Part shown: positions 36,301 to 62,396 of the stretch, piece by piece | How the letters are laid out: each line of letters starts with the position of its first letter | Numbering within the stretch: the stretch's first letter is position 1 | Assembly: GCA_964430735.1 (NCBI GenBank) | Contig: CAYSFB010000002.1 | Location: 7,390 to 71,389, forward strand | DNA from: an uncultured Planctomycetia bacterium | Lineage (GTDB): Bacteria > Omnitrophota > Gorgyraeia > 2-02-FULL-51-18 > JAGOUK01 | Length of the DNA: 64,000 nt | Direction: 5' to 3' | Notes under the pieces: model-generated | Told to the model about the DNA's origin: nothing | What the model saw: the letters and a program-made list of their open reading frames with translations, nothing else | Databases searched by the model: none | Translations under genes and position numbers: made by a program

Positions 36301-39300
36301 AAGTGATGCCCGTCGGCAAGGTAAGGGTCTGCCCCCCGTCAAACACGACCAGTCCGTTCTGGGCAGATAAGGTTCCCGAATTCGCCCAAGTTCCACCGAC
36401 ATTGACCTGGTAATGCGAACCCGACACCTCCAGCGTGGAACCCGCGTCAATGGTCAGATCATTGTCCACATCAAGATTGCTGCCGAGGGTCATGGTGCTG
36501 TTGTTGGATATCTGGAGGTTGTAGAAGGTGCCTCCGGTGATGCCCTCTGAGACGTTGAAGACGACCAGGCCGTTCCGGGGATTAAAAGTGCCGTTGTTGG
36601 TAAAACCGCTCGAGAGGTCCAATTGAAAGTTCGACGCCGACACGTCCAGCGTGGAACCGGCGTCGATATTGATCCCGTGAAGCGTGATGGCAGCCCCCAG
36701 GGTCAGGGTCGTGCTATTGGTCAAATAAAGGTCGTAGACGTTGAAGTCCAGAGATGTGGACTGTCCTCCGTCAAAGTACACAACTCCCGCCTGCGCATTA
36801 AACGTACCGGAATTCGAGAAGTCCCCCCCGACATTGATCTGATAATTCGATCCCGAGACGTCCAGCGTCGATCCGGAGTCGATCGTGAGGTCATTGCTGA
36901 CGGTGATGGCGCTACCCAGCGTCAAGGTGGAATTGTTCGAGACCTGGAGGTTGTAGAAGTTGGCTGAAGTGGCCGTCCCGGTGCCATCATAGACCACCAG
37001 GCCGCTTCGGAATGTGAAGGTTCCGGAATTTATAAAGTCGCCGTTGATGTTCATCTGATAGTGGGATGCCGAAACATCCAGGGTCGACCCGGAATCGATG
37101 GTGAGGGTATGAGCCGACATTCCGCTGTTCAACGTCATCGTGGCATTGTTCGAGATCTGCATATCATAAAAAGCACCGCCGGTGATGGCGCCATTGGCAT
37201 CAAAGACGACCAGTCCGGCTTGACACATAAAAGTACCCAGACCATTCCAATCCCCGCCGACATTAACCTGATAATTGGACACCGAAACATCCAGCGTCGA
37301 ACCTGAATCGATCGTAAGGTCACCGTCAACATCAAAAGCGCTGTCCAGCGTGGCCGTGGTGTTATTGGATAATTGGAAATGGTAAAAGTAGTTGCCGCTC
37401 ATTGCGATCGATCCTCCGCCGTCGAAGACGACGAGTCCGTTTCGCTTGGTGAAGGCGCCGGACATGATCCAGGAGCCTCCAACATTAATCTGATAGTTGG
37501 ATCCCGAAACATCCAAAGTGCCGGCGGCAATGTTCATCCCGGCAATATCCAAAGCGGAGCCCAGTGTCCAGGTATTACCGGCAGCATTGACCTCAAAGTC
37601 ATTAAATGCACTTGAGCTGGTGATGGTTCCGCCAGTACCCTGGAAGCTGACGGCGCCGGTTCCGGCGGTAAAGGTTCCTCCGGTCTGATTCCAGCTGCTC
37701 CCCCCCACTATGATATTAAAGGTCGACGCATTCAGCGTCCCGTTCGCGATGGACATATTGCCCACCGTGATACCAACCCCCAGCGTGATCGTTCCCGTAT
37801 ATCCCGAAGCGATTGTGAAGTTGCCTCCCGACCACGTCCCCACGTTGTCGATCGTGATGTTGCCGGTGTACGTTCCATTAAAGAGGACTGCGTCTTGGTT
37901 ATCCGGAAGCGTGTCTCCGTCCCAGTTATTCGCATCCGACCAATTGGTTCCATCCCCACCCCCGTCAAAGGTCGGGTCGAAGAGGACGTTGGAGTTGTTG
38001 CTGCCGTTCACACCATGTTCAATAAAGAGGTAGTGGATGAGGTTCATATCCCGGGCATTGATTCGGTTCAAGTTAAGGCGTGATGCATAGGCGGAAGGGT
38101 CGCCAAAGTCCAGGAAGTATTGGGTGCCGGGGTTAGAAGACCTGAACTTGATGTGCTGTTCCCCGCCCTGGGCCTGGGGAAGGTCGGGGGCGCCGAGGAT
38201 GGTGACGTTATTAAGGAAGGTGTAGGTCTGACCTGCTTCCCAGGTCACTTCAAGGTCAGGAACGGTCAACGTGAAGTTGTAAAACGACCGGGAACCGTCG
38301 ATTGTTATGTTGGACTGAATATCCACTGAGTCATAAGACCCGGGGACAAAGCCGCCTGACCAGTTCAGGGGATCGGAATAGAGCGTGGAGGATGAGCCGT
38401 CAAATACGAGGGCTTGGAACAAGAGACCGGAGTTGTTCTGGAGATTCATCGAGTGGAGAAGTTCCAAGCTCGGCGGACCGTTGGAATCGAAGTACACCGT
38501 GTCTTGGACTGCCGTATAGATAAAGTTGTGATTTGAGACTTGTCCAATCATCCAGGGAACGCCCGCCTGGGTGGACCTTACGCTCAAGAGATGGCCATAG
38601 GAACCTTGAAGCGAGAGGGTTCCAGTGAAGCTCTGGCTAGCGCCTGATTCGAACTCGACCGTCTTCTCAGGGGCTATCACATAGAAGTCATGGAAGGCAT
38701 TGGATCCGAGGATATGGGAATCTTCCGATCCTTCAAGCTCGACTCTTGAGTCGCCTGACAGGAAGCTTCCCCCATTCACCCAGTCTCTTTGAAGAGTAAA
38801 AAGAACTGAATAGTCAGGGTTAGCGATAGGGTCTTGGGTGGCGGGGGCCTGAAGGGTTGCACCCTGACCTATGATGAGGGAGTCGACTGTGATGTTTGAA
38901 CCCTCGACTACCCTATATAAGGCACCCTGGCCGCTTAAGGTCAGGTTGCCGGTCACGTTCATGCTCTTGAGATCTGAAGTTTGAGTGGTATGAAGCGTGA
39001 TGTTGCCTTCGACATTAAGGTTGTCGGTGACCTGGACGGAGTTGGCTTCAACGGTCACTTCATCCGCCTTAAGGGTTCCTTCCAGCCGGGCTTCATCCGC
39101 AACGATCTCGATCACGCCGTCACGCTCAACCACATGCGTCGCTTCGATGACCCCGGTGTTGTTTACGACCCCTTCAAAGATGTTGTCCAGAGCTTTGGCG
39201 GTAAGGACCACTTTGTTGGAACGAATGGTTCCGTCGTTCTTGACGTTGGGGTTGGATGAGTACTGTTGAACGAGAGCTTGATCGATCGATACGCTCACCA

Positions 39301-39916
39301 ACCCTTCGCTGTCAAAAGAGAGGGTTGCTTTTTCGCAAGCGGCGATCTCGACGGTTCCGAGTTGGGCTTCGATCAAACCGGTGTTTAAGATTTCTTGGGA
39401 AAGAAGGACCACGTTCTTGGCGGAGATGTGTCCGGCATTGTGGATGAAGGAGGCGCCGGATTCGTTTTCGAACACGAATTGATTGGATGCAAAAAGGGCG
39501 TTTGAGATGTCCAAAGTTGAGACTGCCAAAGACCCGGCTGAGATATTGGCGTTCTGTCCGATATTAAAACCATTTGCATTCACCAAAAAGATCTGACCAT
39601 TCGCGTTCAGAGTTCCGAAGATCTCGGAGACTGAGCCGCCGGTGACGCGGGACAGAAGGGTGGATGCTTCGGAAGCTTGGATGAAGTTGACGGTCTGGTT
39701 TTCTGCAATCGAGAAGGAGTCGAAGTTGATGATGGCGCCGTCTGAGGCGGTGATGGTTAAAAGATCCGGAGTTGAGTCATCAACTGTTACCGAACCATTC
39801 TCGACCGTCCAGCCGGATGGAAGTGCGTAAGCTGAAGCAGAACCCAATAAGCATAGCCCTCCCAGGAGTCCCAGGAGAGAGATGCGGCCTATGAGGGTGT
39901 TCTGCAAGCGTTTCAT
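30377..39916 (-). CDS. Two-partner-secretion exoprotein (TpsA; filamentous-haemagglutinin-like beta-helix adhesin, 3,179 aa)
   Basis: A signal peptide (MKRLQNTLIGRISLLGLLGGLCLLGSASAYA) is followed by a TPS/haemagglutination-activity-like domain (NFIQASEASTLLSRVTGGSVSEIFGTLNANGQIFLVNANGFNIG). Then come about 30 tandem ~70-aa beta-helix repeats of the type GSTLDVSGSNYQINVGGDWSNSGTF...FYDLQISNNST. A TpsB gene is adjacent. Confidence 0.8.
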   Translation of the reverse strand: MKRLQNTLIGRISLLGLLGGLCLLGSASAYALPSGWTVENGSVTVDDSTPDLLTITASDGAIINFDSFSIAENQTVNFIQASEASTLLSRVTGGSVSEIFGTLNANGQIFLVNANGFNIGQNANISAGSLAVSTLDISNALFASNQFVFENESGASFIHNAGHISAKNVVLLSQEILNTGLIEAQLGTVEIAACEKATLSFDSEGLVSVSIDQALVQQYSSNPNVKNDGTIRSNKVVLTAKALDNIFEGVVNNTGVIEATHVVERDGVIEIVADEARLEGTLKADEVTVEANSVQVTDNLNVEGNITLHTTQTSDLKSMNVTGNLTLSGQGALYRVVEGSNITVDSLIIGQGATLQAPATQDPIANPDYSVLFTLQRDWVNGGSFLSGDSRVELEGSEDSHILGSNAFHDFYVIAPEKTVEFESGASQSFTGTLSLQGSYGHLLSVRSTQAGVPWMIGQVSNHNFIYTAVQDTVYFDSNGPPSLELLHSMNLQNNSGLLFQALVFDGSSSTLYSDPLNWSGGFVPGSYDSVDIQSNITIDGSRSFYNFTLTVPDLEVTWEAGQTYTFLNNVTILGAPDLPQAQGGEQHIKFRSSNPGTQYFLDFGDPSAYASRLNLNRINARDMNLIHYLFIEHGVNGSNNSNVLFDPTFDGGGDGTNWSDANNWDGDTLPDNQDAVLFNGTYTGNITIDNVGTWSGGNFTIASGYTGTITLGVGITVGNMSIANGTLNASTFNIIVGGSSWNQTGGTFTAGTGAVSFQGTGGTITSSSAFNDFEVNAAGNTWTLGSALDIAGMNIAAGTLDVSGSNYQINVGGSWIMSGAFTKRNGLVVFDGGGSIAMSGNYFYHFQLSNNTTATLDSAFDVDGDLTIDSGSTLDVSVSNYQVNVGGDWNGLGTFMCQAGLVVFDANGAITGGAFYDMQISNNATMTLNSGMSAHTLTIDSGSTLDVSASHYQMNINGDFINSGTFTFRSGLVVYDGTGTATSANFYNLQVSNNSTLTLGSAITVSNDLTIDSGSTLDVSGSNYQINVGGDFSNSGTFNAQAGVVYFDGGQSTSLDFNVYDLYLTNSTTLTLGAAITLHGINIDAGSTLDVSASNFQLDLSSGFTNNGTFNPRNGLVVFNVSEGITGGTFYNLQISNNSTMTLGSNLDVDNDLTIDAGSTLEVSGSHYQVNVGGTWANSGTLSAQNGLVVFDGGQTLTLPTGITFYSLRLSGNTTMTLGANLDLDGDLVIDAGSTLDTSGSNYSVDVAGDWTNAGTFTANSSTVTLSGTGSFSGGANGFYNLVVSGSYTLDADFHVDNDLTLTGTLDTNAAGWSMYITGNWDASGGTLNTDLSPTLHFNAVSGTKTLNFGASTYGNISFENGGGSPTYEFQSALNADGTITIAAGATVDVKSGSNFQINVATGWDNSGTFVPRSGIVVFDGTGTIAGGNFYDLQISAGCTATLGSNLDVDNDLTIGGTATLDVSGSNYDIAVGGDWSNSGTFTYQTGAVVFDGGQSTALNGNFYLLELSNNTTITLDAPLDVNGALNIGAGSTLDVSGSNYQLNVAGDFANSGSFIPRGGLVVIDGTSTVTGGTFYDFQIASGGTVTLGSVLDADNDITIDAGATLNAGGSNITIGGDWSNAGTFTPNIATVVFDGGQTTALQGNFYDLQLSNNTTINPSAALDIDGSLTIDAGSLLDLSGASYQINVGVDWINNGTFIPNAGLVVLDGAGTVTGGNFYALQISNNSTVTLGGALDVNNDLTIDAGSTLDVSGSNHQINVGASWINAGTFNPRNGSVVLDGSGSVSGGTFYNFQVSNNSTATLGSNFDVDNDLTIDAGSTLDVSGSNYQINVGGGFSKAGTFNAQAGVLYFDGGQSTSLDFNVYDLYLTNSTTLTLGAAITLHGINIDAGSTLDVSASNFQLDLSSGFTNNGTFNPRNGLVVFNVSEGITGGTFYNLQISNNSTMTLGSNLDVDNDLTIDAGSTLDVSGSNYQVYIGRDFIKSGTFTARSGLLVFDGGQTITAPGLSIYDLQISNNSSVTLGAAISVHALTIDAGSTLDVSGSSYQISVSGDWTNSGTFSSQTGLTIFTGSATVVGGSFYDLQISGNSTMTLGGAMSAHALTIDSGSTLDVSGSNYQMNISGDFTNSGTFAFRSGLVVYDGPGTSTSADFYSLQVSNNAVLTLGSAITVQNDLTIDAGSTLDVSGSDYQINVAGDFANAGTFNARSGLVVFDGGQAITLEGSFFNLQLSSNTTITLTGALDLDGGLTIDTGSTLGVSGSNYQVNIGADFANAGTFVAQGGLVVFDGGSTSTVTGGNFTDFQISNNTTVTLGGALVVGNDLSIDSGSTLDVSGADWQINVGGDWSNGGTFSFQQGAVIFDGGGSSIIILGGGFYDLQISNNTTVVLGIGIEVAHLLTIDAGSELDVSGDDHQILIDGSWTNNGTFTAQQGTVTFQGDDQTINGSTTFYNLTKTGSGGSITFANGSTQTILGALTLQGDGVADLVLQSDSGGTQWSIDPQGTRTISNVDVIDSNNIHATVIDATDGTSVDSGNNTNWDFVSGPTITGTVFTDFGVTNIGAGKTIAISINGAAADGTDDTDGSGAYSITLSTALVDGDIITIYIDGEAEQGVTVQINDAATYTGLDVYQNYLLIRQDGTGPATNTTLNTADANGDGDISAIYGVSGGDLTMAGSNGLAVMSGTFTPGGDVTTTNMLIAAAGTFSPGANTVTVGGLWEVGGTFTAGTSLVVFNGTTTLIPGGQSFYDVQLSNNSTVTLNSALDVDMSLTIDAGSTLDVSGSDYQVNVGSDFNNAGTFTARNGLVVLDGSGALNGGTFYNLQISNNSTVTLASNLDVDLTLTIDAGSTLDVSGSNYQINIAGDWTNNGTFTAQAGSVVFDGGDQSLAGDTTFYDLTKIDAADDSTDVSLTFEAGSTFTVTGLLTINGIDADDRVNLLSSNPGTRWDLVASGTFDVDWIEITDSDATGGLEPVATNAVDGGNNLGWDFGAEAPAATVVTEETITNELQAAIQTTGDSGGFGGGSSGSGGSLDGGNENSGPAADPYVTAQLAGLDPAIVELIESHITDSTTDLVMDGSSGVIYIADGISDSIVAVSSTTGDVVNTFKTGSQPSRIVLTPDGNFLFVFNRLDGTVSKINTKTGTAEETIEVEGVSTIGLSSDGRSIQLQDASGGVKSTLPTGRSAS
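39000..39830 (-). other. Domain: TPS (haemagglutination activity) secretion domain of TpsA
   Basis: The N-terminal ~280 aa after the signal peptide carry the NxxNG(F/I) and LLSRVTGG-type motifs of TpsA secretion domains. Confidence 0.6.
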
Positions 39917-40061: not shown

Positions 40062-41375
40062 CTAAATGCTGGCGAGGCCGATGAGGTCGGCGGCGGTGAG
40101 GGTGCCGACGATCTTGCCGTGCTTGTTCACGATGATGATGATTTCGCTTTTGGACTCCTTGAACTTGCGGACGGCAGCGGCGAGCTGTTCCCCATCCTCA
40201 AGGACGACGAAGTTTTTCTTCGCGACTTCACGGATGGGCTGGTCCCATTCTTGAAGCGCGATCTCGGGGACTGACAGCGCGTCCAGACGACGCACGTTCA
40301 TGAGGCGGCGCTTGATATAGGTATACAACTGGGCATTCGGGATCTGCTTGTACCCTACCGGGATCGGCGGGACCGGCTGACCTTGAGCGAAGGCCAGATG
40401 CGATTCAAACGCGCTCATCTTGAATTGATTGGCCGTCGTCAAAAGATACCGGAGCGAGCTGTCCGGCACGAGCTCCTCTTCCGCTTCCGGGATCGAGGCC
40501 AGGAAACACATCTCGTACGCGTCGTCCATCGTCAGCTTGAGTTCTTTGTATCCGCGGCCGATGAAGTATGCGAGCTCCTGGTCCTGATCCTTGAACTCCG
40601 TCGAATATTTTTCGAGCGTGTCGATCGCGTCCGCCAGGAACATGCCCAGGGCGACGTCGATGTTGTATAGGATCCCCGCCATCACGATCGCCGCGTCATC
40701 CGACTGGCCCGGCCCGACCCGGTGCCGGATATAGAAGTAACGGATGAGGTCGCCCATGTCCGGGTCGTACTCCTCCATGATGAGCCCGACGCGCTTGAAC
40801 TCCTCAATCTCATGTTCATGCGGGTCATGCGCCAGATGCTCGCCGTCCAGCCCCATGCTCGTCATCACATTCGCGTTGACGAAGTACAACTTGCCGCCGC
40901 CGATCTTGATCTGGTAGCGGGCTTCCGTTTCTTTGCGGACGTCGATGTTGTCGCGCAGGCCGCCCAAAAAAATTCCGCGCAGAATGTCGCGCGCGTTCAC
41001 GCGCCGGTCACGGAACAGTTCGATCCCGAGAAACGGCTCGCCGCGGTGATTGACCAGCCGGTCGAGCTTTTCGCCGTGCATCGTGGTCTTCACGAAATCG
41101 ATGATGTCGTTGATCAGACCCTGGCGGTATTGCTTGGTTTTGACCGGGTCGCGCTTGAGCGCCCGGACGATGTCGTCGATATTGGTGTTGACGTAGGCGC
41201 GTTTGTTGAAGACTCCGGCGCCGTTATGCGCCCGACCTTCGATGGATTGGACGAAGATCATATCAGCGACGTCGTTGGAAGCGATCAATTGTTCGTGGGA
41301 ACGGATGAGCTCGAAGTCCTTTCGGATGAGCTCCGCGGGGGCGATGTCTTTCCTAAAATCCCGGGGTGTGTCCAT
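40062..41375 (-). CDS. Hypothetical protein with C-terminal CBS domain
   Basis: 437-aa ORF with an ATG at 41375. The C-terminal ~60 aa form a CBS motif (VVLEDGEQLAAAVRKFKESKSEIIIIVNKHGKIVGTLTAADLIG). I recognise no family for the N-terminal 370 aa. GC is lower than the window average. Confidence 0.5.
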   Translation of the reverse strand: MDTPRDFRKDIAPAELIRKDFELIRSHEQLIASNDVADMIFVQSIEGRAHNGAGVFNKRAYVNTNIDDIVRALKRDPVKTKQYRQGLINDIIDFVKTTMHGEKLDRLVNHRGEPFLGIELFRDRRVNARDILRGIFLGGLRDNIDVRKETEARYQIKIGGGKLYFVNANVMTSMGLDGEHLAHDPHEHEIEEFKRVGLIMEEYDPDMGDLIRYFYIRHRVGPGQSDDAAIVMAGILYNIDVALGMFLADAIDTLEKYSTEFKDQDQELAYFIGRGYKELKLTMDDAYEMCFLASIPEAEEELVPDSSLRYLLTTANQFKMSAFESHLAFAQGQPVPPIPVGYKQIPNAQLYTYIKRRLMNVRRLDALSVPEIALQEWDQPIREVAKKNFVVLEDGEQLAAAVRKFKESKSEIIIIVNKHGKIVGTLTAADLIGLASI

Positions 41376-41465: not shown

Positions 41466-43235
41466 GTGCCAAAATGCTTCATGCACTCAAACCGCAGGTT
41501 CGCTATTGCAGCCTTTTTAACGGCTTTTCATGTCCTATTGCTCACCCGGGGTACGGATTCCGTCGCCTTAGCCGCAGATAACGACCCTTCCCTCGCAGAC
41601 GCCGTTCAACAACAGACCAGCCAGGCCGAAGAATTCCGCCGTCAAACGGAGGCCCGCGAAGCTGAACCTCCCGCCCAAAGCCCTTTAGCGCCGGCTGAAG
41701 CCGAGTCGGAAAAGGCAACGGGGCCCGACGCCGGTCCCCGCTTCCAGGTCAGCAAGATCCTTTTTGAGGGAAATACGGTCTTCCCTTCTTCCGACTTCGA
41801 CCCTTACGTCAAGATACATGAAGGTGAGACGGTCAGTCTCGAGGACCTCAAACTCGCCGCCAAGGCGGTCACACTCCATTACCGCGCCCGCGGATACCTG
41901 ACCAGCCGCGCTTACATCAAACCCCAGAAGATCGTGAACGGCGTCGTCACGATCCAGGTGCTCGAAGGCCGGTTGGACAAAACGGTCGTTGAAGGCAACC
42001 GGTATTTTTCGACCAAATTTTTTGAAGAAGCGGCGGCCATGCCCAAGGACAAGCCGTTCCGGTACTCGGAACTCGAGCGCCGCCTGCGCTTCGTGAACCG
42101 GAACCCCGACTTCCATATCGCCGCGGTCCTCGCCCCCGGTCAGACGCCGGAGACGTCCGACCTGCACCTCAAGATCGACGACGGCCTGCCGATGCACGCG
42201 TATTACGAGTTCAACAACCGCGGCTCCAAACTCACCCACCGGTCGCGTCACATGGTCACCGGCGTTCACAATAATTTCCTCGGCAAGGCGGATTCCCTGT
42301 CGGTCACCGGCTCTATCGCCGAAGAAGATGCGTTCCGCGCGCTGTCGGCGTCGTGGTCGCTGCCGATGTGGCAGACCGGCACAACCTTCATGATGTCGGG
42401 CAGCTACGTCGACAGCAGGCTCGTCAAACACCTCAAACCCCTGGACATCGAGGGCCTTTACACCAGCGTCACGCCGGCCATCTCGCAGGAACTCGTCATC
42501 ACGCAGAAGGACCAGCTGTCCTGGTACGCCGGCCTTGAGATCAAGGATTCCAAGTCCACGATCAGCGACACCAAGACCAGTCTCGACCGGATGCGCGTCC
42601 TGGTCACCGGCCCGCGCTGGACGCATCTGGGCGGCGGCGGACGGACCAGCCTTTCGGGCGATGTGCATTGGGGTATTCCGGGTCTCCTGGGCGGATCTGA
42701 AGCGGAGGATCTCAACGCTTCGCGGAACGGTTCGGGCGGGGATTTTATTTATTACACCGGTTCCGCTTCTCGGATCCAGCGCCTGCCGCTGGGACTCACA
42801 GGCGTGCTGCGCGGCGAAGGCCAATGGACCGACGACACCCTGACGGCGGTCGAACTGATGCGTCTCGGGGGTTACTCCGGTGTGCGCGGCTATCCGGAAT
42901 CAGACTCGCAAGGCGACTACGGGTTCATGGGAACGATGGAGCTGGTCGCCCCGACCCCCCTGCCCGACAGCATCAAGTTCCCTTTTACGAAGGACCCCTT
43001 CAGCAAGTCGGTTGATTGGCTCGTGTTCTTTGACGGGGGAAAAGTTTTTGCCCAGGAACGCGGCGCCCGGACCGACGTCAAGGATCGGATGTTATTGGGC
43101 ATCGGCGGCGGTCTTCGCGTTCACTTGAAGCAGAATATTTCCGCCCAGCTCGATTACGGCTGGCCCGTCGGCGACGACTCCACCGATACGGACAACCAAC
43201 CCCAAGCCCACTTCTCGATCCGAGTCGGTCTCTAA
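41466..43235 (+). CDS. Two-partner-secretion outer-membrane transporter TpsB (ShlB/FhaC/HecB family)
   Basis: A POTRA region (PRFQVSKILFEGNTVFPSSDF..., VTLHYRARGYLTSRAYIKPQKIVNGVVTIQVLEGRLDKTVVEGNRYF) is followed by a C-terminal beta-barrel. The ORF track begins at GTG 41466. An in-frame ATG at 41481 gives a clean signal peptide (MHSNRRFAIAAFLTAFHVLLLTRGTDSVALA). Confidence 0.8.
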   Translation: MPKCFMHSNRRFAIAAFLTAFHVLLLTRGTDSVALAADNDPSLADAVQQQTSQAEEFRRQTEAREAEPPAQSPLAPAEAESEKATGPDAGPRFQVSKILFEGNTVFPSSDFDPYVKIHEGETVSLEDLKLAAKAVTLHYRARGYLTSRAYIKPQKIVNGVVTIQVLEGRLDKTVVEGNRYFSTKFFEEAAAMPKDKPFRYSELERRLRFVNRNPDFHIAAVLAPGQTPETSDLHLKIDDGLPMHAYYEFNNRGSKLTHRSRHMVTGVHNNFLGKADSLSVTGSIAEEDAFRALSASWSLPMWQTGTTFMMSGSYVDSRLVKHLKPLDIEGLYTSVTPAISQELVITQKDQLSWYAGLEIKDSKSTISDTKTSLDRMRVLVTGPRWTHLGGGGRTSLSGDVHWGIPGLLGGSEAEDLNASRNGSGGDFIYYTGSASRIQRLPLGLTGVLRGEGQWTDDTLTAVELMRLGGYSGVRGYPESDSQGDYGFMGTMELVAPTPLPDSIKFPFTKDPFSKSVDWLVFFDGGKVFAQERGARTDVKDRMLLGIGGGLRVHLKQNISAQLDYGWPVGDDSTDTDNQPQAHFSIRVGL

Positions 43236-49202: not shown

Positions 49203-49538
49203 TTATTTCTTTTTGCTTCCGCGGCTGAACTGAAGGACCGTGGCCTTGGCTTTTTCGACCTCAGCCTCGTCCTTCATGCCTTTTTTCATATAAAAAACCG
49301 ACAAATTCACATGCGCCATGAGCGACTCGGGGTCCTTTTCGGCCAGGCGCTTCATCAGATCGATCGCTTCGTCGAGACGGCCGAGCTTGCTGTAAACCAC
49401 CGCGAGGCTCTCGTACGTTTCCAGGAAGTCCGGTGCGTCGGCGAGGATTGCCTCGAGCTCTGCCGCGCACGCCTCGGGCTTCTTTTGGATCAAGAGCTCC
49501 AGCGCCGCTCCCAGGCGGCGCCGAAGTTCATCGGACAT
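49203..49538 (-). CDS. TPR-repeat protein
   Basis: 111 aa with 2-3 TPR-like helical repeats (ETYESLAVVYSKLGRLDEAIDLMKRLAEKDP). Confidence 0.5.
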   Translation of the reverse strand: MSDELRRRLGAALELLIQKKPEACAAELEAILADAPDFLETYESLAVVYSKLGRLDEAIDLMKRLAEKDPESLMAHVNLSVFYMKKGMKDEAEVEKAKATVLQFSRGSKKK

Positions 49539-50025
49539 ACGCCGCGTCGACGCTGCACGCGCCGAAGCCCGGCCGGGCGCGCATCCCCAGAACCACCAGC
49601 GCCGTCAGAACCAAATCCATCGCAAAAACACCCGGCAGCGGAATCGAGATCAGCTCGCCGAAACATCCACATTCGTCCATCGGCAGCCGGCGCACGAGCG
49701 CCTGACCGACCGCGACCAAAAAAATCCCGAACATCGCCAGGATTGCCTTGCCCGAGACACGGGTCCACAGTCCCAGCATGAAAAAAACGCCAGCGACGAG
49801 CTCAAGCCACGGAAGTGTCTGCGCCAACAATGCCGCGCGCCCGCCGCCGATCATCTGATACTGCTCGATCACGTACGCAAAATTCTGATAAGGCCCGATC
49901 AACTTCTCAAAACCGGAGACGGCGAACATGAACCCGACTCCGACACGGACGGCGGTCCAAAGGTCCGGTCGTGCCGGCGGAAGCGCGGCCGGCCGCTTCC
50001 CTTGCCTGGCGTGCTTAGTGGGCAT
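49528..50025 (-). CDS. DoxX/MauE-like integral membrane protein (redox partner of the adjacent thioredoxin-fold protein)
   Basis: 165 aa with four predicted TM helices. A Cys pair (DECGCFGEL) lies in a periplasmic loop. It overlaps the downstream DsbA-like gene by 11 nt. Confidence 0.45.
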   Translation of the reverse strand: MPTKHARQGKRPAALPPARPDLWTAVRVGVGFMFAVSGFEKLIGPYQNFAYVIEQYQMIGGGRAALLAQTLPWLELVAGVFFMLGLWTRVSGKAILAMFGIFLVAVGQALVRRLPMDECGCFGELISIPLPGVFAMDLVLTALVVLGMRARPGFGACSVDAAYVR

Positions 50026-50725
50026 GTCCGGCGTGCGGATCCGCTCCGGCAGCTGCGGGTCTCGGCGCGGTATTGTCGGCCGGCAGCACGATCGTGGCCG
50101 CGTCGGGGAATCGCTTGGTCATCTCCGCCGACATCGCCTGAAAGCCCACAATCATGGTCCCGTTGATGAAAAAAGTGGGGGTCGACTTGAGGCCCAGCTG
50201 AAGCCCTTCATTCCGGTCCGCGAGGATCCGCTGCTCGGCGGAAGGATCGGCCTGGCACCGGTCGAGCTCGGTCATATTGACTCCCGACTGATGGGCCGCT
50301 TGACGCAAAATGGCCGTGGCGTCGGCCAGGTCCCGCCAAGAAGGCTGGGACAGCATGACCGCGTTGTGCGTGGGCCAGAACTTCCCCTGCATCCGGGAGC
50401 ACTCGACCAGCTTGGCGGCAACCATGCTATGCGCGTGACCGCGCAGCGGGAAGTATTTGACTTCGATGTAGATGTCCTGAGGATGACGCTTGGCGAGTTC
50501 GTGGAGGAAGTAGGAGCTTTTGGCACAGGAGGGACACTGGTAATCGATGAATTCGACGATGCGGACGGGAGCGGACACATCACCCATGGCTTTGGGCGCC
50601 GCCATCATGGCCTGCCTGGGCTGATCCGCCGCAGTCCCCCGAGCCGTCCGAACTCCGTAAACGCCGCCGACCAGAACCGAGACCACCAAAACGGAAAGTA
50701 GTGTTTTTGATATTTTCATCAGCAT
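50015..50725 (-). CDS. Secreted DsbA-like thiol:disulfide oxidoreductase (thioredoxin fold)
   Basis: A signal peptide (MLMKISKTLLSVLVVSVLVGGVYG) is followed by the CPSC active site (DYQCPSCAK) in a DsbA-like context. Confidence 0.65.
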   Translation of the reverse strand: MLMKISKTLLSVLVVSVLVGGVYGVRTARGTAADQPRQAMMAAPKAMGDVSAPVRIVEFIDYQCPSCAKSSYFLHELAKRHPQDIYIEVKYFPLRGHAHSMVAAKLVECSRMQGKFWPTHNAVMLSQPSWRDLADATAILRQAAHQSGVNMTELDRCQADPSAEQRILADRNEGLQLGLKSTPTFFINGTMIVGFQAMSAEMTKRFPDAATIVLPADNTAPRPAAAGADPHAGHAH

Positions 50726-50795: not shown

Positions 50796-53700
50796 TTATG
50801 CTGAGATCGCCGCCAACCGGATAGCCGTCAGGATTTGCTGAAAAACCTCCCAGGCCCGGCGCATCGGCCGGAGCTTATGGAGGTTCAAAACCTCCCGCTC
50901 GGCCGCTTCCTGAGGAACCCGCTGGACCTTGGCTAGAATTGCGACCGGCAGTTCGACACCAAAAAGCGTGCTCAGTACCGACGTGCAGATCGGGTCCGCG
51001 GCCAAGGAGGCGGCGCCCCCTTCCCAGCGCGCCAGCCGCGCGCCTGCCAGAACCGCCCTGATCACGTCCGGGTTCGGATCCGATACAAATCCCACGGCGC
51101 CAGGCTTAAGATCTGCAGCATTCAAGGCGATGACCGCTTCGGAATAATCGGCCGCATCCGGAGCCGGAACCCGGCCCGTGAAGTTCTCGACCTGGCTCAG
51201 TTCCAAATAAATCCCCCGAACTGCCAGCCGAGCCGCAGCCGCAGCCAGCACCTCGCTCTGCTCGAACCTCCTGGCCGGATCAATCGCGAGGACGCCGCGC
51301 TCCAGCCGGACCAATACCCGGCGCTCCGAACCGGCCTCGGCCCCCTTCAACAGATCTGACAACTGCGACAGAGCCCGTTCGCCTTCCGCTTCTGAAGCAT
51401 ACGCCAGGGCGCCGGCGACCGGCTTCCATCCCGACAATCCAAAGAACTGCATGAAAGAATCCGGCCAGCCCGCCAGCCGCGCGCCGCTCTTGCTTTCCTG
51501 CAATGCGCGCAAGTCCAGGATGGCTTTTTGAACTGGCTTGACCGCGCTGGGCCTAAAACGGTGAATCCAGTTCTTGATGCTCTTGTCGCTCCGATCGCCG
51601 AAACGGGCGTCGTGCTTTTGGAGCTCCTGCAGAAGCCTGTCAAAATCCTCCGGATGCGCATCGGGATCCATCAAAACACGGTCCAATGATGCCGACAGGT
51701 GCGGGTTGGCCAGCGCAGCCGCTTCAACCGTGAAGAGAAGCCCCAACCTCCATGCGTTGGGCATCCTGTTGCTTGGGGCGTTCCGGAGCATGCCCTCCTG
51801 TTCGGTCAGAATTTGGATCAGCCGGTCCGCACGATCGGCGAACCACTCATAGCCGGGTTTCCACGCATCTTTCCGGTCCTTGTAATACTGGCGGTCTTCC
51901 AGCCAGATCAATCTGCCCCGAAGCAGTCCGGCCGGCTGAACAGCGGCCAGGAATCGGCCGATGGCTTGGTGCAAACGCCCGCGCAAAGCAGGATTGTTCG
52001 TTTGCGCTTCAAGCGCCCGGCGCAGCGACGGCATGTACATGTGGATGTCAAAAAAATCCCGCTTGTGGTTCAGGTGCGCTGCCCCGAAAAGCAGATCGGT
52101 CGCCACCGCCTCAAGTCCGGCGTCGCCCGGAAGCAGGACGAGATTGCGCGAAAGCCGCTGATACCCTTCAATCAGGCGCTTATCATTAGCATCCACGAAG
52201 TAGGAGAGATTCAAGACCAGAAGGAGCGGCAAGGAAAGAGGGCCCGCCGATTCGTACCATCTTCCGCTTTGAACATCCGAATTATACCGATCGACCAATC
52301 GTCCAACGGCGGCCATCTCCTCCGGGTCGGCGCTGCCTCCTCGCTCAAGCAAGTACATCGCCGAGGTCATCAATAGCCGCACGGCGTCCGTCGATCCGTC
52401 CCGCGCGGACTTCAGCTTCAAGCGATCCAGATTGAGCAGCAGCAGCTGCCGGCCTTCGTCCGACAGGACGGATTCCAGAAGATTGGATGCACGGGCGCTG
52501 GCCTCTGATCTCCAGTCATAATCCGGGTCTGCGGCGGAGACTGCTGCTCGAATCAATTCAGCGCGGACATCCACGATCCCGGCGCCTGCCTGACCTTGAT
52601 TCGCCAGCCGCGCGCCCTCCAAGGGGGACTCCGCAGGCCGTTCCGCCGTGAGGACGCGCAGAAACTCGCGGTTCTTCGCTTCGGCACCGGCAAACGGATC
52701 CCGCTGGTCTACTTGAAAGCCGGAATGCTGATAGCGGGTCCGGTTCTGCTGCATGGCGATGCGATGAGCCCATTCATCAACAAAACCCGGATCCGTCGTG
52801 TATCCGCCGTGAATAACGCGGCGAACTTGCGGGTGGTTGGAGGCGATGCGGGAGATCGCGGCATCCGGATGATCATCCGGCCGTTGGTCCAATCGGTCGA
52901 TTGGTCCATAAATCTGCCAGGGCCCCATGTCGGCGACGATGCCGGTCAGGGGCGCCCCGATCACATGCATCGCTGTCTCGAGCTTGCCGTCAAATTCTTC
53001 CGCCGTCACGTCGCCGGGAAGCTCCAAATAATCCGGATTCACCCCGCGACCCGGGGCGTTCCAGGACTCTTTCCAAAGATAGGCGCGCGAGACCTCAAGC
53101 CCCCTCTCCTCCTTTTCGACCAGCACGGCCTTGCGGTTCATACGCATCAGGATGCGCGACAGGACGGCGTCTTCGCCTGATCCGACATCCAGCCACCATC
53201 CCTCCGGCAGCCGGCCCTGACGCCAATCGTCCAGCAGTTGACCGATCATCACCGCGGTGAACATGCTCATGGACATGCCCGGATACTTTTTCATTTCCAT
53301 CGCGGCGAAAGAGGACGGATGAATCAGCAGGATGTTGCCGGAGTGCTTTTCATACACGTCTCCAAGCAAGCGGATCAAGCGGTCCATTTCGCGGCGCACC
53401 GCCAGCGAGTCCCGGCCATTGCCCGAGAAGCCTTCGGTGAGATTGACAAAAATCAGCGGTCCGACACGAATCACATGCGCGTACGGGGCCAGATGGGAAT
53501 GCCCCGGAACCCGGAACCCCTCTCGGCTCAAGACGATCGGAACCGTCCGTCCCGGTCCGAACGTCATGACATGTACGGGCTCGAATTGCGATTCCGGATC
53601 CCCATAATCAGGAACGATTTTTTTCAGAACCTCGCGGGCCAGTCGGTCGGCTTCCGCTTCAGTAAGATCGTGCAGCGGCGCTGCTGGGACAACCCTCATC

Positions 53701-56700
53701 GGCGCAACGTCAGTCGCGCGGCGCTTGAGCCAGTCCGGAAGGATCCGCTTCCACCCGCTCTGCGCCAGCCGCGCGCCGGACCGAGCTGCAGGGCTCAGTT
53801 GATAGACGCTCGGTGATTCAGATCGCCCGGGCCGGCCGCCCATCAGCGTCGGGTCCAACGCGAGGGATGGGTCAAAATAGACCGAGCGGGCATGCGGCAT
53901 CCATAACCGATGCCACTCATTGAGCTCCCGGACACGCTGGTCAAAGATCGGCTTCACTTCCCCGGCGATCTGCGCAATGGCGTAGAGCGATTGATGAGCG
54001 ACGGCCCGCAGCTGCGCCGAGCTGCTGTTCAGCAGCACGAATGCCCATTCAGCAAGATCCGCGATCGATTCCGCGGCGTCCGGATCCCCCGGCTCCGAGG
54101 ACTCAAGCTCCACACGCATTTCCTCAAGCACCTGCAGCATCGCTTTGAGCTCCGCCCGACGCTTCACTTCCTTAATAGCCCGAACCAGCGGAAGGGCCGT
54201 GACCGCAAACATCGGGTGAAGCCAAACCGAGGCCGCAAGAACCGGCATCGCGAATCCCGCAATCAGGAACGCGGGGCCGCTGACCCGGTCCGCTTCCGGA
54301 TGACTCCGACGAAAGGCTGTGATCAAACGCGGCAGAATCTGCCGAGCTACTTCAACCGGCTGAACCGCTGCAACCATTTCGGGTGTGATCTCGACCTTCG
54401 CCGCATGCGGGGCCTCTTTGCCCAGCCGGCGGAAAAGCCGCTCCCGTTCGATCTCCGAGTCCCTTAACAGCTGCTCAAACCCTTCCGACCCACCCGTTCC
54501 CGCCAACCGCGCGCCGGCCGCAAAATCGACCGGAAGATCGATCTCGAGGCGCGTGCCCCAAGAAGGGTCTGAATCGATCTGCAGGAGACCGCGATGCTCG
54601 GCGATCGTCTCAACCGCCGTCGGCATTCCGATACCTCTGCCGCCAAAATAAACGCCCTGCTCGGACCGGTCCCTGGAATAAGCGAATTTGAATATGTCCG
54701 GAATGTCTTCGGGTTTCATTCCCACGCCGTTGTCCTCGATCGTCACCCGGACATGCTGCGTCTCCGCCATAAATTGAGCTTTGACCAGGATCCGGGACCG
54801 GCTCCGGTAACTGAAGTAGCTTCTTCCTTCCCGGACGATCGAAGCGAACACCGCATTGCGGATCAATTCGCGAAAAGCGTTCAACAGACGCACACGGTCG
54901 CCCGTCATCGACGGCAGGCCGTTTTCGAAGTCGGTCTCGATCTCCACCGGCCTATGATGCTCCGGATGACGACCGCGCTCGCGCTCAATCGCTTCCTCCA
55001 GCAGCCGGCCCGCGTCGATCGACGGATCAATAATTCCCGAGTAACTGCCGCTGGTGTCCTTGAGCAGGATTTCCAAATGCTCCGACAGCCTCCACATCCA
55101 TCGGCGCAGAGCAGAAATCTGCACCAGAACGGACTGCACCTCGTCGGACGCGAGCAATTCCGGCTGAAGCTGGATTTGCCTGAGCGGTTGGTCATAAATG
55201 CTGGTGTTGGAAAAATCCTTGAGAAAACCCGAGACAGACTTCAGAGACGCTTCAGATCGGACGTCCTCCTTGACTTCGAGACCCGCGCGCATCCGCTCGA
55301 TCGCTTCGGAATTCCGGACGGCGTGGTCGCTGCCCGCGAGACGATCCAGCCCGCGTAGAAGCTCAAGGTAGTCCGAAAGACCTGACCGGGTCTGGGTCAC
55401 AACGAACTTCGCATACTCCGCAATCCCCCGTTCCGGGTCAGCCGCAATCGTTTCCCGCAAACGGACAAAATAATTGAGGCCCTGAGCCAGCCGCGCGCCA
55501 ACGGCCGGCATTCTCCGGATCAGGGCGAGGTTCTTGGTTTTTTCGATCACGAATAAGCCGTACGCGCCGCTCTCGACGATGCGGTAGGGGTTCCTCAAAC
55601 CGCTTACTTCCCCTTGATAGGAAAAAGCGTCGTCGTACAGAATCAGCCGATGATTGTATCCATAACTGCGGATCTCGCTCTTGAGCTTCAGCTCCGGATC
55701 AAACACCAAGACCCGGTTGCTGTGCTCGTCTCCGACCAGAATAAGGCCGTTGGGGTCCACATTGATCGCGGTCACGCTGTTCATCAATGATAATAACCGC
55801 GTCTTTTTAAGCTCCGGATCATAAATGGCGATCCGTCCCCCGCCGCCGGTGATCCAATTGCCTTCGCGATCCGCCGCAATGACGTCGATCGGCAGGTCGG
55901 CCTGCATCTGATGGAGCTTGCGGCCGGTGACGATATCATAAATCGCCATCGAATGATCGGCCGAATCCGAGTTCGAAGTTCTGACGGCCAAACGACCCTC
56001 GTCGTTCAGCGCCCAAACCGGAACCGTCTGGATTCCGCCCAAAAACGGATTTGATATTCTTTGGATCAAATCGAGATCAGGGCCATAAACCAGAACGTCT
56101 CCGGACGCAACGTCGGCCAGGACGATCCTGTTCCCGGGGTCCGATTCGATGGAAGGATGGAATCTACCGATGATCCCGCCTGTCTTGCGCAGCGCAGCAT
56201 CGTACGCCGTCAGGCCTCCGACGCTCACCGTCCAAATCCGTCCGTCGGTTCCGGCGGTAACCGCCTCGGGCGATTCCTCCGCCCGGATCTCGCGTAGAAC
56301 CCTAAGGTCCGATCCCAGCACCTTGATCGTTCCGTCCCGCCAGGACTTCCGGATCAGCCTTCCGGCCGGGTCGGATATGAGTTCGTCGGACCGGTATCCG
56401 TCGGGGGCCTTGAGCCACCGCTCCTTCACCGCTCCATACGCGCTGCTGCTCCGCAAAGCCTGCAATAAAGACTCGGTCAGATCGACAAGATGCTTGAGCG
56501 ACGTGTCCGAACGGGTTGCTGAAGGAACTTCGAGTCGGTCGCCCTGCCATTCGGTCTGGAACTTTTTGAGGAATTGCCTCAATACAGGCCGCAGCGGCTC
56601 CGGATCCGTTCCGATTCCCGTCAACGCGTAAAAAATCCCGTACCCGTTCATGAGAATATTTTCGATCTGCGCCCGGGTGAGGCCGTTGATGAAGCCCGCA

Positions 56701-59700
56701 TAGGCGACGGCGATCAGCCACTCCACCATCTCCTGACCCATCGCAAAATCGAGATTCGTGTTCTCGTTGACCGCGTCAAAATGCTCGTAGTCGTCGATCC
56801 CGGATCTGCGGAGATTCACATAGCGCATGCTCTCCTGAAGATTCTGAACCTCGCCGATAGGATCCACGTTCCAGAACCATTTTTCTCCGAAGGCTTCCGA
56901 ATGCGTCAGCGGCGTCAGCGACGTGTGGATCCGTCCGTGGAGCATGCCCAGACTCAGATCGCGCACCGCCTTTCCGGAAAATTCATCGAGCGCTTTTCCG
57001 CGCAGCGCGGGATCGATATCGGTGTAACGGCGGGTCAGGTACTGACGGGAGGTTTTTTTGGCCCTGAACTTGAGAACATGCTCCGGATTGAGGTTGGTCG
57101 GGTACTTTCCGATGATGTCATTGAGTTTTCCGACCTCCGCCAGCGGCTCAGGCGCATCGGGGATGCCGATCCGGCGGGCCGCGAGCATGTTCTGATACTG
57201 ACTGATAAGCTTTTTACCGCCGGGGTCATCGCCGTTGGCGAACTTGTAACCGATCAGATACTCACCGCCCGGCTCTTCCTCGATCAGGTAGGTCCGCCCC
57301 TGCCAAAATGCCCGTCGAATAGACGGATGTTTGACGCTTGTCTCATTCAAGATCGAATCCCCTTCTTGTCCGCTGAAGTCAGGGACTCCATGCCGGGATC
57401 CGTCCCGATGCCGGGTGACAAATGCGATCGCCGTGGTAAACGCCGATTTCAACCGGCCCATCAAAGTCGTTTTGACTTCCTCGTTCGAAACATCTGCCAG
57501 CCGCGCGCCGTCGGCGCGGCGCGCTTCGCGAACCGAATCTTCAAGCTTCTTCAGCGTCCGGTTGTAGACAGCCTTTATGCCTTCGGGCTGATAGGTGTTC
57601 AGGCGGCGGAGCTCTCCCGGGCGATCCGGGTCAACGGCGTCGACGGACATGCTTTGGGGGGTGACGTTGACCATGAAGCTCGTCGCCGGATCGACGGTGA
57701 ACAGAAAAACGCGGCCCCTGTCGATCCTTCCGAGCGGCTCGACGGTGCGATAAGCCTTTTTCCTGAGGACCAGCGAAAGGTCTTCGATCGTCGGCATCGC
57801 CGCGGTGTTTTGGCCGGTCAGACGCGCCACGGCCTCGGACAAAGCCAGGTCTTTTGCCTTTATGGCCGGTGCGGCCGGCAAAACGGGGGGTAGTTTTTCC
57901 AGCTCGGGCACGCCCGCCTCCAGGCGCTTCTGGATTTTGATCAATTCGCTTTTTGACTTCTTGTGAGGGCCGAGCATGCGGATGTGGATCTGTTTCTTTT
58001 TGATGCTGATGTGAGAAACGATCGCTTTGTCGCGCCGCGCCAGATCCAGCGCCTGCGCAATCACTTCCGGTCCGACGCCCATTTTTAAATATGCCTGCCA
58101 ATAGGGAAATTGCGGTCCGGACAGCGTGATTTGCCGGGTGTCGGCCGTCTGGAGGCGCCGTCCCAAAATTTCGAGCGTCCGAACGGACAGGTTCTTGATA
58201 ACGATCTGCGGGTCGACCGGCGGGACCGGCGTCCGCACCGGGAGCGGCGGCAACGTGCCCTGCCGCTCCGTGATCGCCGCCAGAGTCTTCAACGCAAGAT
58301 CGAAGCTGTACATCCGCAGCATCAGCTCCGCGTCCTTTTGCATGGATGCAATGCGTTCATCGCTCAGCGCGTCGTGGGCATTTTCCAGGCCCGCCATGCG
58401 CCGGAACCGGACAAATTCAGTTTTGCGGACGGGGCCGGCGAGGATGCTCCTGCCGTCCGAGAAGACCCAGTGGACGATCCGCCGCACATCCGACGGCATG
58501 TTGTCCGGCCGTCGACTGCCCGCCACAAAATGATGGCGCCGCTTGTACAGTTTGGCGAGCAGCACCCGGGCGAACCCGAATCGGCTCATGCTGCGATGCC
58601 CGCGTTCCTTGCGGGCGATCTGGCTGCGGTACCAGTCCGCGAGCGCAAGCGCGGTGACGAATTCCGGAGTCTCGCCGGGAAATAAACGGGTATACAGGTC
58701 AATGGTCTCGTTTTGAGTCTTGAGCACGCGGTTCAAAAAGCGGGCCTCGCCGTCTGTGGCGAAGTGAATGAACAGCTCATAACGCTTCAAGGGCGGGCCG
58801 TGCCGGTCGCGAGAATCCGCGAGATACCGCCGTAAACGGCGGTGCTGACGGCTCAGCGTCTCGGTAAACGCTTCGCCGGGTTTGCGGGCCTGCTCGTCCA
58901 GCGCAGTAGGAGAGACCGAGGCCCATTCGCGCAAGGCCTCCTTTGCCGGAATCGCGACGAGTCCGTTTTGATCCGCCCGGACCCGCTGCTCGAACCGGCC
59001 GTCGCGGCGCCACCGCACCGTATACACGGGCGGCGATCCGGCCGAGGCCTGCCGGCTCAGGATCAGGCCGGTCGGAGAATCGGGCCCGAGCTTCACAAAA
59101 TCCCCCGGCTTGAATCCGTCGTCCCGTCCGACGGACGCCAGCCGCGCGCCGGCCGAACGGCGCTGCCGCAGCGCCAGATCGAAGCCGTAATGGAGTTCGT
59201 CGTCGGTCCGATGATGCGCCTGAAAAATATTACGGCGGGCCTTGAACCCGGCCTCGGTATATCGGCGAAGCTCGTCGCTGAACGACCTCTCCGATGCAAA
59301 TCCCAAATCCTGAAGCGGCGCCTGGAACGAACGGCTCTCGTAAACCGAGCCGTCGTAATTCGTGTCGTCCGTCATCAGGAATCCGCCTTCGCGCACGGAC
59401 GCCGCCAGCTCCGGTAAAAAGCGGGGGTACCACGACGCCATGTCCCACGGGGCCCGCTGGTAATAAATGTCGATTTTGCGGGCCAGGGCTTTTTTGAGAA
59501 CGTCCGGATAAAGCTCCGACTCCACCACATTGGCCTGGATCAGCGTGATCGAATAGCGCTTTTCGCGGAGCCCGGGATAGGCCCAGCGGAACGTCACGGT
59601 CGCGGCGCCCGAATCGGAATGGATTCGGATCGAATCCTTCCGAACCCCGATCGCCTGGAGCTCTCCCAGGAATTTTTGGGCGGGAGAGATCAGGCCGGCG

Positions 59701-62396: not shown

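Follow-up and report, generated by a model that had tools for sequence, protein, structure and literature searches.

A recurrent pentapeptide in two giant genes

Does a short nucleotide string that recurs along a giant bacterial gene matter as DNA or through the peptide that it encodes, and what could such a peptide be used for? This question is raised by a 64,000-nucleotide stretch from an uncultured bacterium assigned to the Omnitrophota (contig CAYSFB010000002.1 of assembly GCA_964430735.1; the window hereafter designates this whole stretch), and more specifically by g2, a minus-strand open reading frame (ORF) of 3866 aa located at positions 50796–62396. The 14-mer GCCAGCCGCGCGCC is found there nine times on the plus strand, at positions 51031, 51472, 52603, 53764, 55486, 57496, 59137, 60100 and 60685, and a tenth copy, at 54502, carries a single, synonymous mismatch. 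All ten sites lie in a single frame and each of them encodes Gly-Ala-Arg-Leu-Ala (GARLA). The analysis reported here points to a signal carried by the peptide and placed at module junctions; the reading that we favor, with a probability of roughly 0.55, is that g2 and its relatives are modular polyproteins processed at this motif, possibly by their own N-terminal domain.

The ten copies had been noticed in an earlier, sequence-only reading of this DNA, the contexts of which match ours; eight of its ten coordinates stand, whereas 51473 and 53765 should read 51472 and 53764. The intervals between sites range from 147 to 670 aa in g2, the composition of which predicts 0.039 GARLA instead of ten, in keeping with the earlier statement that such a pentapeptide is not expected by chance. 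The sites present in a second giant gene had been missed: g1 (6794–21484, minus strand) is a 4896-aa ORF paralogous to g2, with the same order of parts, and contains six GARLA (0.04 expected), one GARLS, three AARLA and two AARMA, written with mixed codons. The exact 14-mer occurs in g1 at 7752 and one-mismatch copies at 12297, 16038 and 16512, the remaining two GARLA being written with other codons. With at most one mismatch allowed, the 14-mer is thus found 14 times in the window, against 0.13 in dinucleotide shuffles; all copies are direct, on one strand, and every one of them falls within g1 or g2, the remainder of the window containing none. GARLA itself is absent from a third giant gene, which encodes a two-partner-secretion (TPS) exoprotein, and from 26 ordinary genes (8187 aa in total), so that the generic oligonucleotide skew affecting all genes alike, which the sequence-only reading had set against its own proposal, is not what is observed.

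g1 and g2 share an N-terminal domain of ~460 aa (hereafter the N-domain) with 35% identity; it spans aa 60–520 of g2 (60837–62219, minus strand) and, in g1, the segment 20030–21250 (minus strand), which is 35–40% identical to its g2 counterpart. A profile search with this domain retrieved 8078 cluster representatives at E ≤ 1e-3, and 2120 at E ≤ 1e-30, among 1.84 billion proteins; a search of the N-domain alone against an index of 5.8 billion proteins gave no match. The domain always lies at about residues 55–520 of the members, many of which are 2–8 kaa (thousand amino acids) long. Applied to GTDB species genomes, the same profile detects 213 loci, nearly all of which bear the label Omnitrophota, and a single genome often contains several paralogues; the family as a whole belongs, with few exceptions, to this phylum. 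Among the 150 top-scoring representatives, no 5-mer is more over-represented than GARLA (295 occurrences versus 2.2 expected), which comes ahead of GGYHT, a signature of the N-domain; GARMA (118 versus 0.4 expected), AARLA (68) and GARLS (63) are also enriched. Scans allowing one substitution lead to the general form [GA]-[AST]-R-[LMF]-[AST], in which the Arg is invariant, members lacking GARLA using G[TS]RL[AS]; the flanks are unconserved, except for a weak S/A preference at position −1. The median spacing of the motif is 333 aa and the first site lies at a median position of 590, just past the N-domain. Its density amounts to 0.91 per 1000 aa in family ORFs versus 0.023 in flanking ORFs (80 loci). 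At locus L071, one exact copy of the 14-mer (8149–8162, minus strand) encodes GARLA in a 638-aa ORF that flanks the family gene on the opposite strand and may belong to a further member.

Chance, codon bias, oligonucleotide skew or an assembly artefact would be the simplest explanation of the repeat, and the GC-rich composition of the window is the one feature that points in this direction. We give it next to no credit in view of the shuffles, of the confinement of the copies to g1 and g2 within the window and of the counts and densities found in the family. In addition, the sequence shared by the copies is shorter than any assembler k-mer, and the identical g2 protein was found on two contigs, in two samples; g2 is therefore not an assembly artefact.

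Peptide versus nucleotide conservation

The nucleotide identity of the copies had suggested that the constraint, or the origin, lies at the DNA level, the 14-mer being a Chi-like recombination hotspot or the target or scar of cassette shuffling, and the peptide a by-product. Several features argue for this explanation. Nine of the ten g2 sites are nucleotide-identical, and the ten 15-mers that encode GARLA in g2 display a mean pairwise difference of 0.58, versus 3.79 ± 0.32 when simulated from g2 codon usage, i.e. ~10 standard deviations away. The same simulation, together with the 0.03 chance per site that all four codons be the preferred ones, led us to reject codon bias as an explanation of this identity; an origin of the repeat by intragenic duplication was likewise discarded, because g2 contains no repeated DNA beyond the 14-mer core. 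Moreover, with every copy in direct orientation and in a single frame, recombination between junctions would always yield an in-frame product, and homology between modules stops exactly at the motif (see below). Finally, relatives display a moderate codon preference at the sites (GGC, CGG and TTG), which exceeds gene-wide usage (43 versus 27, 28 versus 13 and 30 versus 13.5, respectively; p from 3e-4 to 6e-8). Relatives of very different GC content (L012, L031, L054 and L074, among others) favor GGC, CGG and TTG/CTG in this way, which might reflect a translational pause at module boundaries or a shared ancestry of the junctions.

A different picture emerges from the codons themselves. At 71 GARLA sites in relatives (GC 45–67%), the peptide is kept and the codons vary, with GGA, GGC or GGT for Gly, all four GCN codons for Ala, six codons for Arg and five for Leu. 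The substitutions observed within the motif are conservative with respect to the amino acid (L/M/F, A/S/T, G/A), not to the base. Counting the 14-mer in relatives, a check suggested by the sequence-only reading, gave only four exact copies in 83 related loci; it is not conserved as DNA. E. coli Chi is GCTGGTGG, and its overlap with the 14-mer is limited to GCTGG, which is lost wherever Leu is encoded by TTG, a codon found at the site as often as CTG. In g1, which belongs to the same genome as g2, the junction codons are mixed and the 15-mers differ by 2.20 on average. With g2 excluded, junction 15-mers taken from one gene differ by 3.23 and those from separate genes of similar GC by 3.28, practically the same figure, which rules out a general homogenisation of junction codons within genes. 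No inverted copy exists and no recombinase was found near g1 or g2, the neighbors of which in the window are housekeeping genes; furthermore, 14 nucleotides are too few for RecA-type homology. The comparison with systems in which short repeats border exchangeable coding segments, i.e. shufflons, integron cassettes and Chi, leads to the same point: there, the repeats are conserved as DNA, require a recombinase (RecBCD in the case of Chi) and, in shufflons, are inverted, whereas the DNA encoding GARLA is not conserved across relatives, its copies all have the same orientation and no recombinase lies next to them.

Since the codons vary in relatives, since junction codons are not homogenised within genes other than g2 and since the 14-mer occurs just four times in 83 loci, the codon comparison indicates that selection acts on the peptide and that the signal is mainly a peptide rather than a DNA one. 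GGCGCGCGGCTGGC is the way in which the source genome writes the peptide signal G-A-R-L-A. Neither the DNA-level constraint nor the Chi-type hotspot put forward by the sequence-only reading is thus supported, and we hold a DNA-level signal to be very unlikely. The near-perfect uniformity of g2 is nevertheless real; therefore, a history of junction recombination in that one gene is possible. JGI metagenome contigs were scanned for close relatives of g2 and none was found. The finding shows that a peptide signal can mimic a DNA repeat within one gene.

Module boundaries and the protein frame

The sites coincide with the limits of folded units. All 11 Pfam domains counted lie inside single inter-site segments, each in a different segment and some of them 5–12 aa from a site: GNAT and HATPase_c in g2; alpha/beta hydrolase, GH77, methyltransferase, HPr and GDPD in g1; HATPase_c, His_Phos_1 and RelA_SpoT in the relative P0103; Lysine_decarbox in the relative P0082. 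The domains named for g2 in the sequence-only reading fared unequally: GNAT and HATPase_c are significant matches, the NHL propeller is sub-threshold (19.1 bits, E = 1.3e-3) and the methyltransferase has no Pfam match in the segment 53764–52603. Homology blocks were delimited by an all-against-all BLAST of the 150 proteins, N-domain excluded, and set against randomly placed sites: 26% of the block starts and 18% of the block ends lie within 10 aa of a site (5 and 4% at random), and 22% of the blocks cross a site (53% at random). A module located at another position in P0006 matches GH77 of g1 over 860 aa (66% identity), and in each of the two proteins both ends of the match fall on sites. Likewise, the start Met of free-standing GDPD enzymes aligns with the g1 site at aa 4041, and in an AlphaFold model of this junction, confidence is low upstream and rises exactly there, the motif forming the end of a helix. 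These observations support the proposal, made in the sequence-only reading, that the motif deliberately joins modules which fold independently, with block ends found about five times more often near sites, and sites crossed less than half as often, than at random. The shuffling of modules with boundaries at the motif, also anticipated there, is borne out by the GH77 module.

In g2 (all features on the minus strand), the N-domain is followed by ten motif-delimited modules. The first GARLA after the N-domain (aa 567, 60684–60698) and the second one (aa 762, 60099–60113), which closes the GNAT module, are exact 14-mers, as are those at aa 1083 (59136–59150), 1630 (57495–57509) and 2300 (55485–55499). 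The sixth site (aa 2628, 54501–54515), with Leu codon TTG, lies 5 aa past HATPase_c (aa 2499–2623). Exact copies then occur at aa 2874 (53763–53777), 3261 (52602–52616) and 3638 (51471–51485), the latter opening a C-terminal module shared with P0003 (53% identity), and finally at aa 3785 (51030–51044), beyond a variant AARLA at aa 3721 (51222–51236). Two stretches of g2 are hydrophobic and transmembrane-like: aa 2705–2738 (about 54183–54284), in the sixth inter-motif segment (aa 2628–2873), and aa 3803–3824, in the last module.

In g1 (minus strand as well), the cargo consists of alpha/beta-hydrolase, GH77 4-alpha-glucanotransferase, methyltransferase, HPr-like and GDPD modules, and the only transmembrane-like stretch is N-terminal. 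The N-domain is closed by a variant AARMA at aa 501 (19970–19984), followed by a second AARMA at aa 525 (19898–19912), an AARLA at aa 1082 (18227–18241) and GARLA at aa 1654 (16511–16525, Leu codon TTG) and 1812 (16037–16051, Ala codon GCT). The AARLA at aa 2210 (14843–14857) lies between the alpha/beta-hydrolase and GH77 and opens the block common with P0006; the GARLA at aa 3059 (12296–12310, Ala codon GCA) closes GH77 and opens the methyltransferase module. Further downstream are a GARLA with codons unlike those of the 14-mer (aa 3292, 11597–11611), an AARLA located 10 aa ahead of the HPr-like domain (aa 3908, 9749–9763), the GARLA at aa 4041 mentioned above, 12 aa ahead of GDPD (9350–9364), and the one at aa 4574, an exact 14-mer, which opens the C-terminal module (7751–7765). 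The last site is a GARLS at aa 4888 (6809–6823), four residues from the C-terminus (...RR-GARLS-EISA-COOH).

The modules are framed by conserved ends. The N-termini of the family look like signal peptides. At the other end, a conserved amphipathic helix (..phi..A..[RKQ]A[VI]xx[AS]A) leads to a terminal [AS]-A-COOH in 104 of the 150 representatives. In the window, this tail comprises the last 45 aa of g2 (50799–50933, ...AIRLAAISA-COOH) and the segment 6797–6931 of g1; in one subfamily, it includes a motif copy four residues from the end, as in g1, the copy being degenerate in g2. The tail could be a sorting, secretion or protease-recognition signal. Given the signal-like N-termini, the N-domain and the conserved tails, the members are built as a signal, an N-domain, a variable cargo and a conserved tail. 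Within the literature and databases searched, this frame and the junction motif are undescribed: Pfam and NCBIfam contain no model for the N- or C-terminal frame, and a literature search for GARLA yielded nothing but surnames and unrelated text. The database gene call for g2 (P0001) begins 52 codons after the start of the longest ORF (62241–62396), which would drop the signal-peptide-like segment (..RRFLLRWTALTLAILLSAHEVCLAAAQ); the true start of g2 is uncertain.

The matches of the N-domain to Pfam are weak but point consistently to families of the TIKI superfamily: ChaN (Cofac_haem_bdg) is hit by 22 of 53 members, with a best E of 2e-4, below the gathering score, and the other hits are DUF5694, not confirmed as a TIKI family, Erythro_esteras and TraB. 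NCBIfam gave no match, and a profile search of the sequences of the PDB gave only spurious coiled-coil matches. An AlphaFold model was built from an eight-sequence alignment (pLDDT 76), and its top five Foldseek matches are EreC and BcR135. The predicted fold agrees with that of the superfamily, alpha/beta with a core made of a parallel beta-sheet, to which Ere enzymes add a helical lobe. The N-domain contains invariant D85-A-H87, E115 (a Glu 28 residues after the His) and G472-G-Y-H475 (g2 numbering), i.e. D26, H28, E56 and H416 of alignment A2, along with a further invariant Glu and an invariant Arg; the invariant residues are predicted to lie at the C-terminal ends of core strands. In RRSP and Ere enzymes, the catalytic set is made of E-x-H, a Glu at +28 and a His (PMC6254334). 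By spacing, rather than by superposition, the His-to-Glu distance of the N-domain is the same as in RRSP (H3902/E3930) and BcR135 (H85/E113) (PMC6254334), an Asp replacing the first Glu. The N-domain is likely to belong to the TIKI/erythromycin-esterase fold superfamily (Tiki, TraB/PrgY, ChaN, erythromycin esterases, RRSP, HopBA1). It fits these folds best and displays a His...Glu(+28)...His arrangement reminiscent of their 2His/2Glu set; it differs from them by a sequence similarity below curated thresholds, the Asp in place of the first Glu, a helical insertion of ~290 residues and its fusion to kilobases of cargo. Tiki is reported to trim the N-terminal eight residues from Wnt3a, cutting between Leu and Ala.

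Proposed processing at the motif, rival readings and genomic setting

What would a junction peptide do in such proteins? The linker/processing site offered by the sequence-only reading is in our judgement the best reading, processing being favored because the pentapeptide is isolated and strict, is spaced by the size of a domain, has its first copy after a hydrolase-like domain and marks boundaries that match the termini of free-standing enzymes. A member, which comprises in order a signal-like N-terminus, a hydrolase-like domain of ~460 aa, the first motif copy, unrelated enzymes separated by the motif and a C-terminal helix ending in [AS]-A-COOH, would be synthesized as a single exported chain and subsequently cleaved at the motif so as to free the modules as separate enzymes, which may act as exported effectors. 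The scissile bond would most likely follow the hydrophobic residue, GAR[L/M/F] | [A/S/T], since this hydrophobic-then-small pair resembles the 'small-Leu-small' sites of MARTX toxins. Owing to the same frame and orientation of all copies, recombination at junctions would always yield an in-frame protein, a property that fits module shuffling and need not cause it.

As to the agent of cleavage, the strict form of the motif contains no Ser, Thr, Cys or Asn nucleophile; consequently, self-cleavage by acyl shift is impossible and an enzyme would be needed. Self-cleaving motifs of the SEA, GPS and Asp-Pro types were rejected on this ground, and a signal-peptidase-I site because no hydrophobic region precedes the motif and no A-x-A pattern is present. 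Pfam and NCBIfam revealed no known peptidase family in either g1 or g2. The motif comes in protein-specific dialects (heterogeneity chi2 of 336 on 68 degrees of freedom), exemplified by P0039, P0107, P0043 and P0116 with 11 of 11 Met at position 4, 13 of 13 G[ST]RL and 14 of 14 L-type sites, and dialects differ between paralogues of one genome (GARMA in L025 versus AARLA in L054; AARLA in L018 versus GARLA in L028). No accessory gene is conserved beside the family genes across 80 loci, the sole recurrent neighbors being nuo-like (NADH dehydrogenase-type) membrane-protein genes at a few syntenic loci, judged by eye. Taken together, the dialects and the lack of a conserved accessory gene favor recognition in cis, for which the N-domain is the sole universal candidate. 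The best protease candidate would thus be the protein's own TIKI-like N-domain, to which we attribute a putative protease activity.

The family raises close parallels with known multi-effector proteins. In MARTX (multifunctional autoprocessing RTX) toxins, effectors are released by cleavage in unstructured segments between them, at sites with the consensus 'small-Leu-small' (PMC2900308), and one of these effectors, RRSP, is a TIKI-fold endopeptidase (PMC6254334). In the MARTX proteins of Vibrio and relatives, as proposed for g1 and g2, a giant secreted chain has conserved N- and C-terminal regions on either side of a variable array of unrelated effector enzymes that recombines, and the effectors are freed by cuts at short sites between them; 'small-Leu-small' resembles AR-L-A. 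Unlike these toxins, g1 and g2 are devoid of RTX/GD-rich repeats and of a C80 cysteine protease domain (Pfam, NCBIfam), their candidate protease is N-terminal and TIKI/Ere-like, their motif is far stricter (five positions, invariant Arg) and present at essentially every junction, including right after the N-domain, and their N-terminus is Sec-signal-like rather than arranged for type I secretion; their hosts are Omnitrophota. Viral polyproteins (picornavirus 3C and alphavirus nsP2 sites) similarly combine one ORF, unrelated units, a short strict junction peptide and a protease in the chain, here a candidate one; g1 and g2 differ from them by their location on a bacterial chromosome, their export, the protease fold and a cleavage that we infer. 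Conceptually, the family would be a variant of autoprocessed multi-effector proteins.

Several observations nonetheless weigh against processing by the N-domain. First, no split orthologues exist. Second, erythromycin esterases are esterases and not proteases, and N-domains without cargo (~480–580 aa) stand alone in Omnitrophota and Ratteibacteria (L034, L041, L042, L045, L079; P0151–P0156). Third, some giant members have few or no recognizable sites. Fourth, the AlphaFold model sets the g1 GARLA at aa 4041 in a helix that runs into the GDPD barrel, not in an obvious disordered linker. Fifth, in one subfamily, to which g1 belongs, a motif copy lies only four residues ahead of the C-terminus, a position that is odd for module release and hints at recognition. 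Last, the peptide explanation covers neither the nucleotide uniformity of g2 nor the codons (GGC, CGG and TTG/CTG) preferred at the site throughout the family.

Part of these points would be accommodated if the motif were an uncleaved recognition or docking handle, read by the N-domain, a chaperone, the export machine or a PDZ-type reader, which would thread or tether the modules and leave the mature protein whole. The motif, or a degenerate copy, lies four residues from the C-terminus, inside the [AS]A helix, in g1, g2 and several relatives; some sites are just 9–40 aa apart; one is helical in the model; and cleavage is an inferred step. On the other hand, the sites follow the classic pattern of polyprotein cleavage: a pentapeptide on its own, in which the Arg is invariant and all substitutions are conservative, with unconserved flanks and a domain-size spacing right behind a hydrolase-like domain. 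Moreover, free-standing homologues of modules start at the motif, and the modules are unrelated enzymes with no obvious cause to stay tethered. For these reasons we regard a docking handle as rather unlikely.

Alternatively, the motif might be cut in trans by a periplasmic housekeeping enzyme, by a tail-specific/S41 enzyme reading [AS]A or by a host or prey protease, the N-domain being an anchor or an esterase. The nearest structural matches of the N-domain indeed include esterases and the non-enzymatic ChaN, and the cargo-less N-domains fit this possibility too; besides, the small apolar end residues of the conserved tail resemble, we presume, the signals read by C-terminal processing proteases. 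Dialects that are strongly protein-specific and differ between paralogues in one genome are not what a single common protease would lead one to expect, no conserved protease gene lies near the family genes and the motif is found essentially only in proteins with an N-domain, all of which makes cleavage in trans unlikely in our view.

Processing by the N-domain, which we prefer, bears on a question already raised for this phylum. Giant genes are a hallmark of Omnitrophota, and whether their products act as single chains or as cut products is explicitly open: cleavage has been raised as an open question (10.1101/2023.11.21.568195, PMC10066038, 10.64898/2026.06.07.730766), and information on cleavage points is lacking according to West-Roberts et al. 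2023 (10.1101/2023.11.21.568195). The published giants (West-Roberts et al. 2023 bioRxiv 10.1101/2023.11.21.568195; Seymour et al. 2023 PMC10066038; 2026 complete-genome survey 10.64898/2026.06.07.730766) resemble g1 and g2 by their phylum, their multi-enzyme ORFs and their signal peptides, and the 'Dockerin-type' ones contain similar domains (HATPase_c, NUDIX, Lysine_decarbox, HAD), two of which, Lysine_decarbox and HATPase_c, also occur in the present family. They differ in that C39 and S8 peptidase domains are invoked there, and in size (>30 kaa versus 4–5 kaa for g1 and g2); these papers (10.1101/2023.11.21.568195, PMC10066038, 10.64898/2026.06.07.730766) make no mention of GARLA, TIKI or TraB. 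The strict junction peptide provides concrete candidate cut points for more than 8000 protein clusters, and giant ORFs could be split in silico at the motif into modules for annotation and folding. Should the N-domain be a TIKI-fold processing enzyme with a five-residue specificity, it would be of a new kind and a possible biotechnological tool.

A broader scenario, which we put forward tentatively and consider somewhat doubtful, is that Omnitrophota encode thousands of 'enzyme cartridges', each comprising an exported precursor, its own TIKI-type processor, a private five-residue dialect of the cut site and an in-frame swap point for modules, the identical 14-mers of g2 reflecting a recent burst of exchange. 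If so, a single gene would supply free enzymes in stoichiometric amounts, which might be delivered to the surface or the interior of host or prey cells, and the motif would provide the first general rule on where Omnitrophota giant proteins are cut.

The window that contains g1 and g2 is a piece of bacterial chromosome, with gap-pgk-tpi-secG, fmt-def and ribBA-ribH genes, an Opp/Dpp-type ABC transporter and a two-partner-secretion pair; its genes are also found on contigs from runs SRR14271365, SRR14271366 and SRR14271372. Directly upstream of g2 and on the same strand lies a gene for a Porphyromonas-type peptidyl-arginine/agmatine deiminase (62565–63944, minus strand), intriguing given the invariant Arg of the motif; this family is not among the recurrent neighbor clusters of the other 80 loci. 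Directly downstream of g2 are genes for a DsbA-like thioredoxin and a MauE/DoxX protein (49528–50725, minus strand), which may constitute a disulphide-forming pair of the envelope, and g1 is closely followed on its downstream side by a PIN-domain (toxin-type) gene (6057–6455, minus strand). Neither g1 nor g2 has a TPS domain, which within the window is found only in the ORF 30377–39916; they are therefore not two-partner-secretion exoproteins. This ORF (minus strand), the third giant gene mentioned above, encodes such an exoprotein, has a lower GC content (0.51–0.59) and contains no GARLA. The gene for its ShlB/FhaC-type transporter (41466–43235, plus strand) is divergent and located ~1.5 kb away, with a CBS-domain gene (40062–41375) in between, and the exoprotein displays an odd PTSIIA_gutA-like match at aa 2172–2222.

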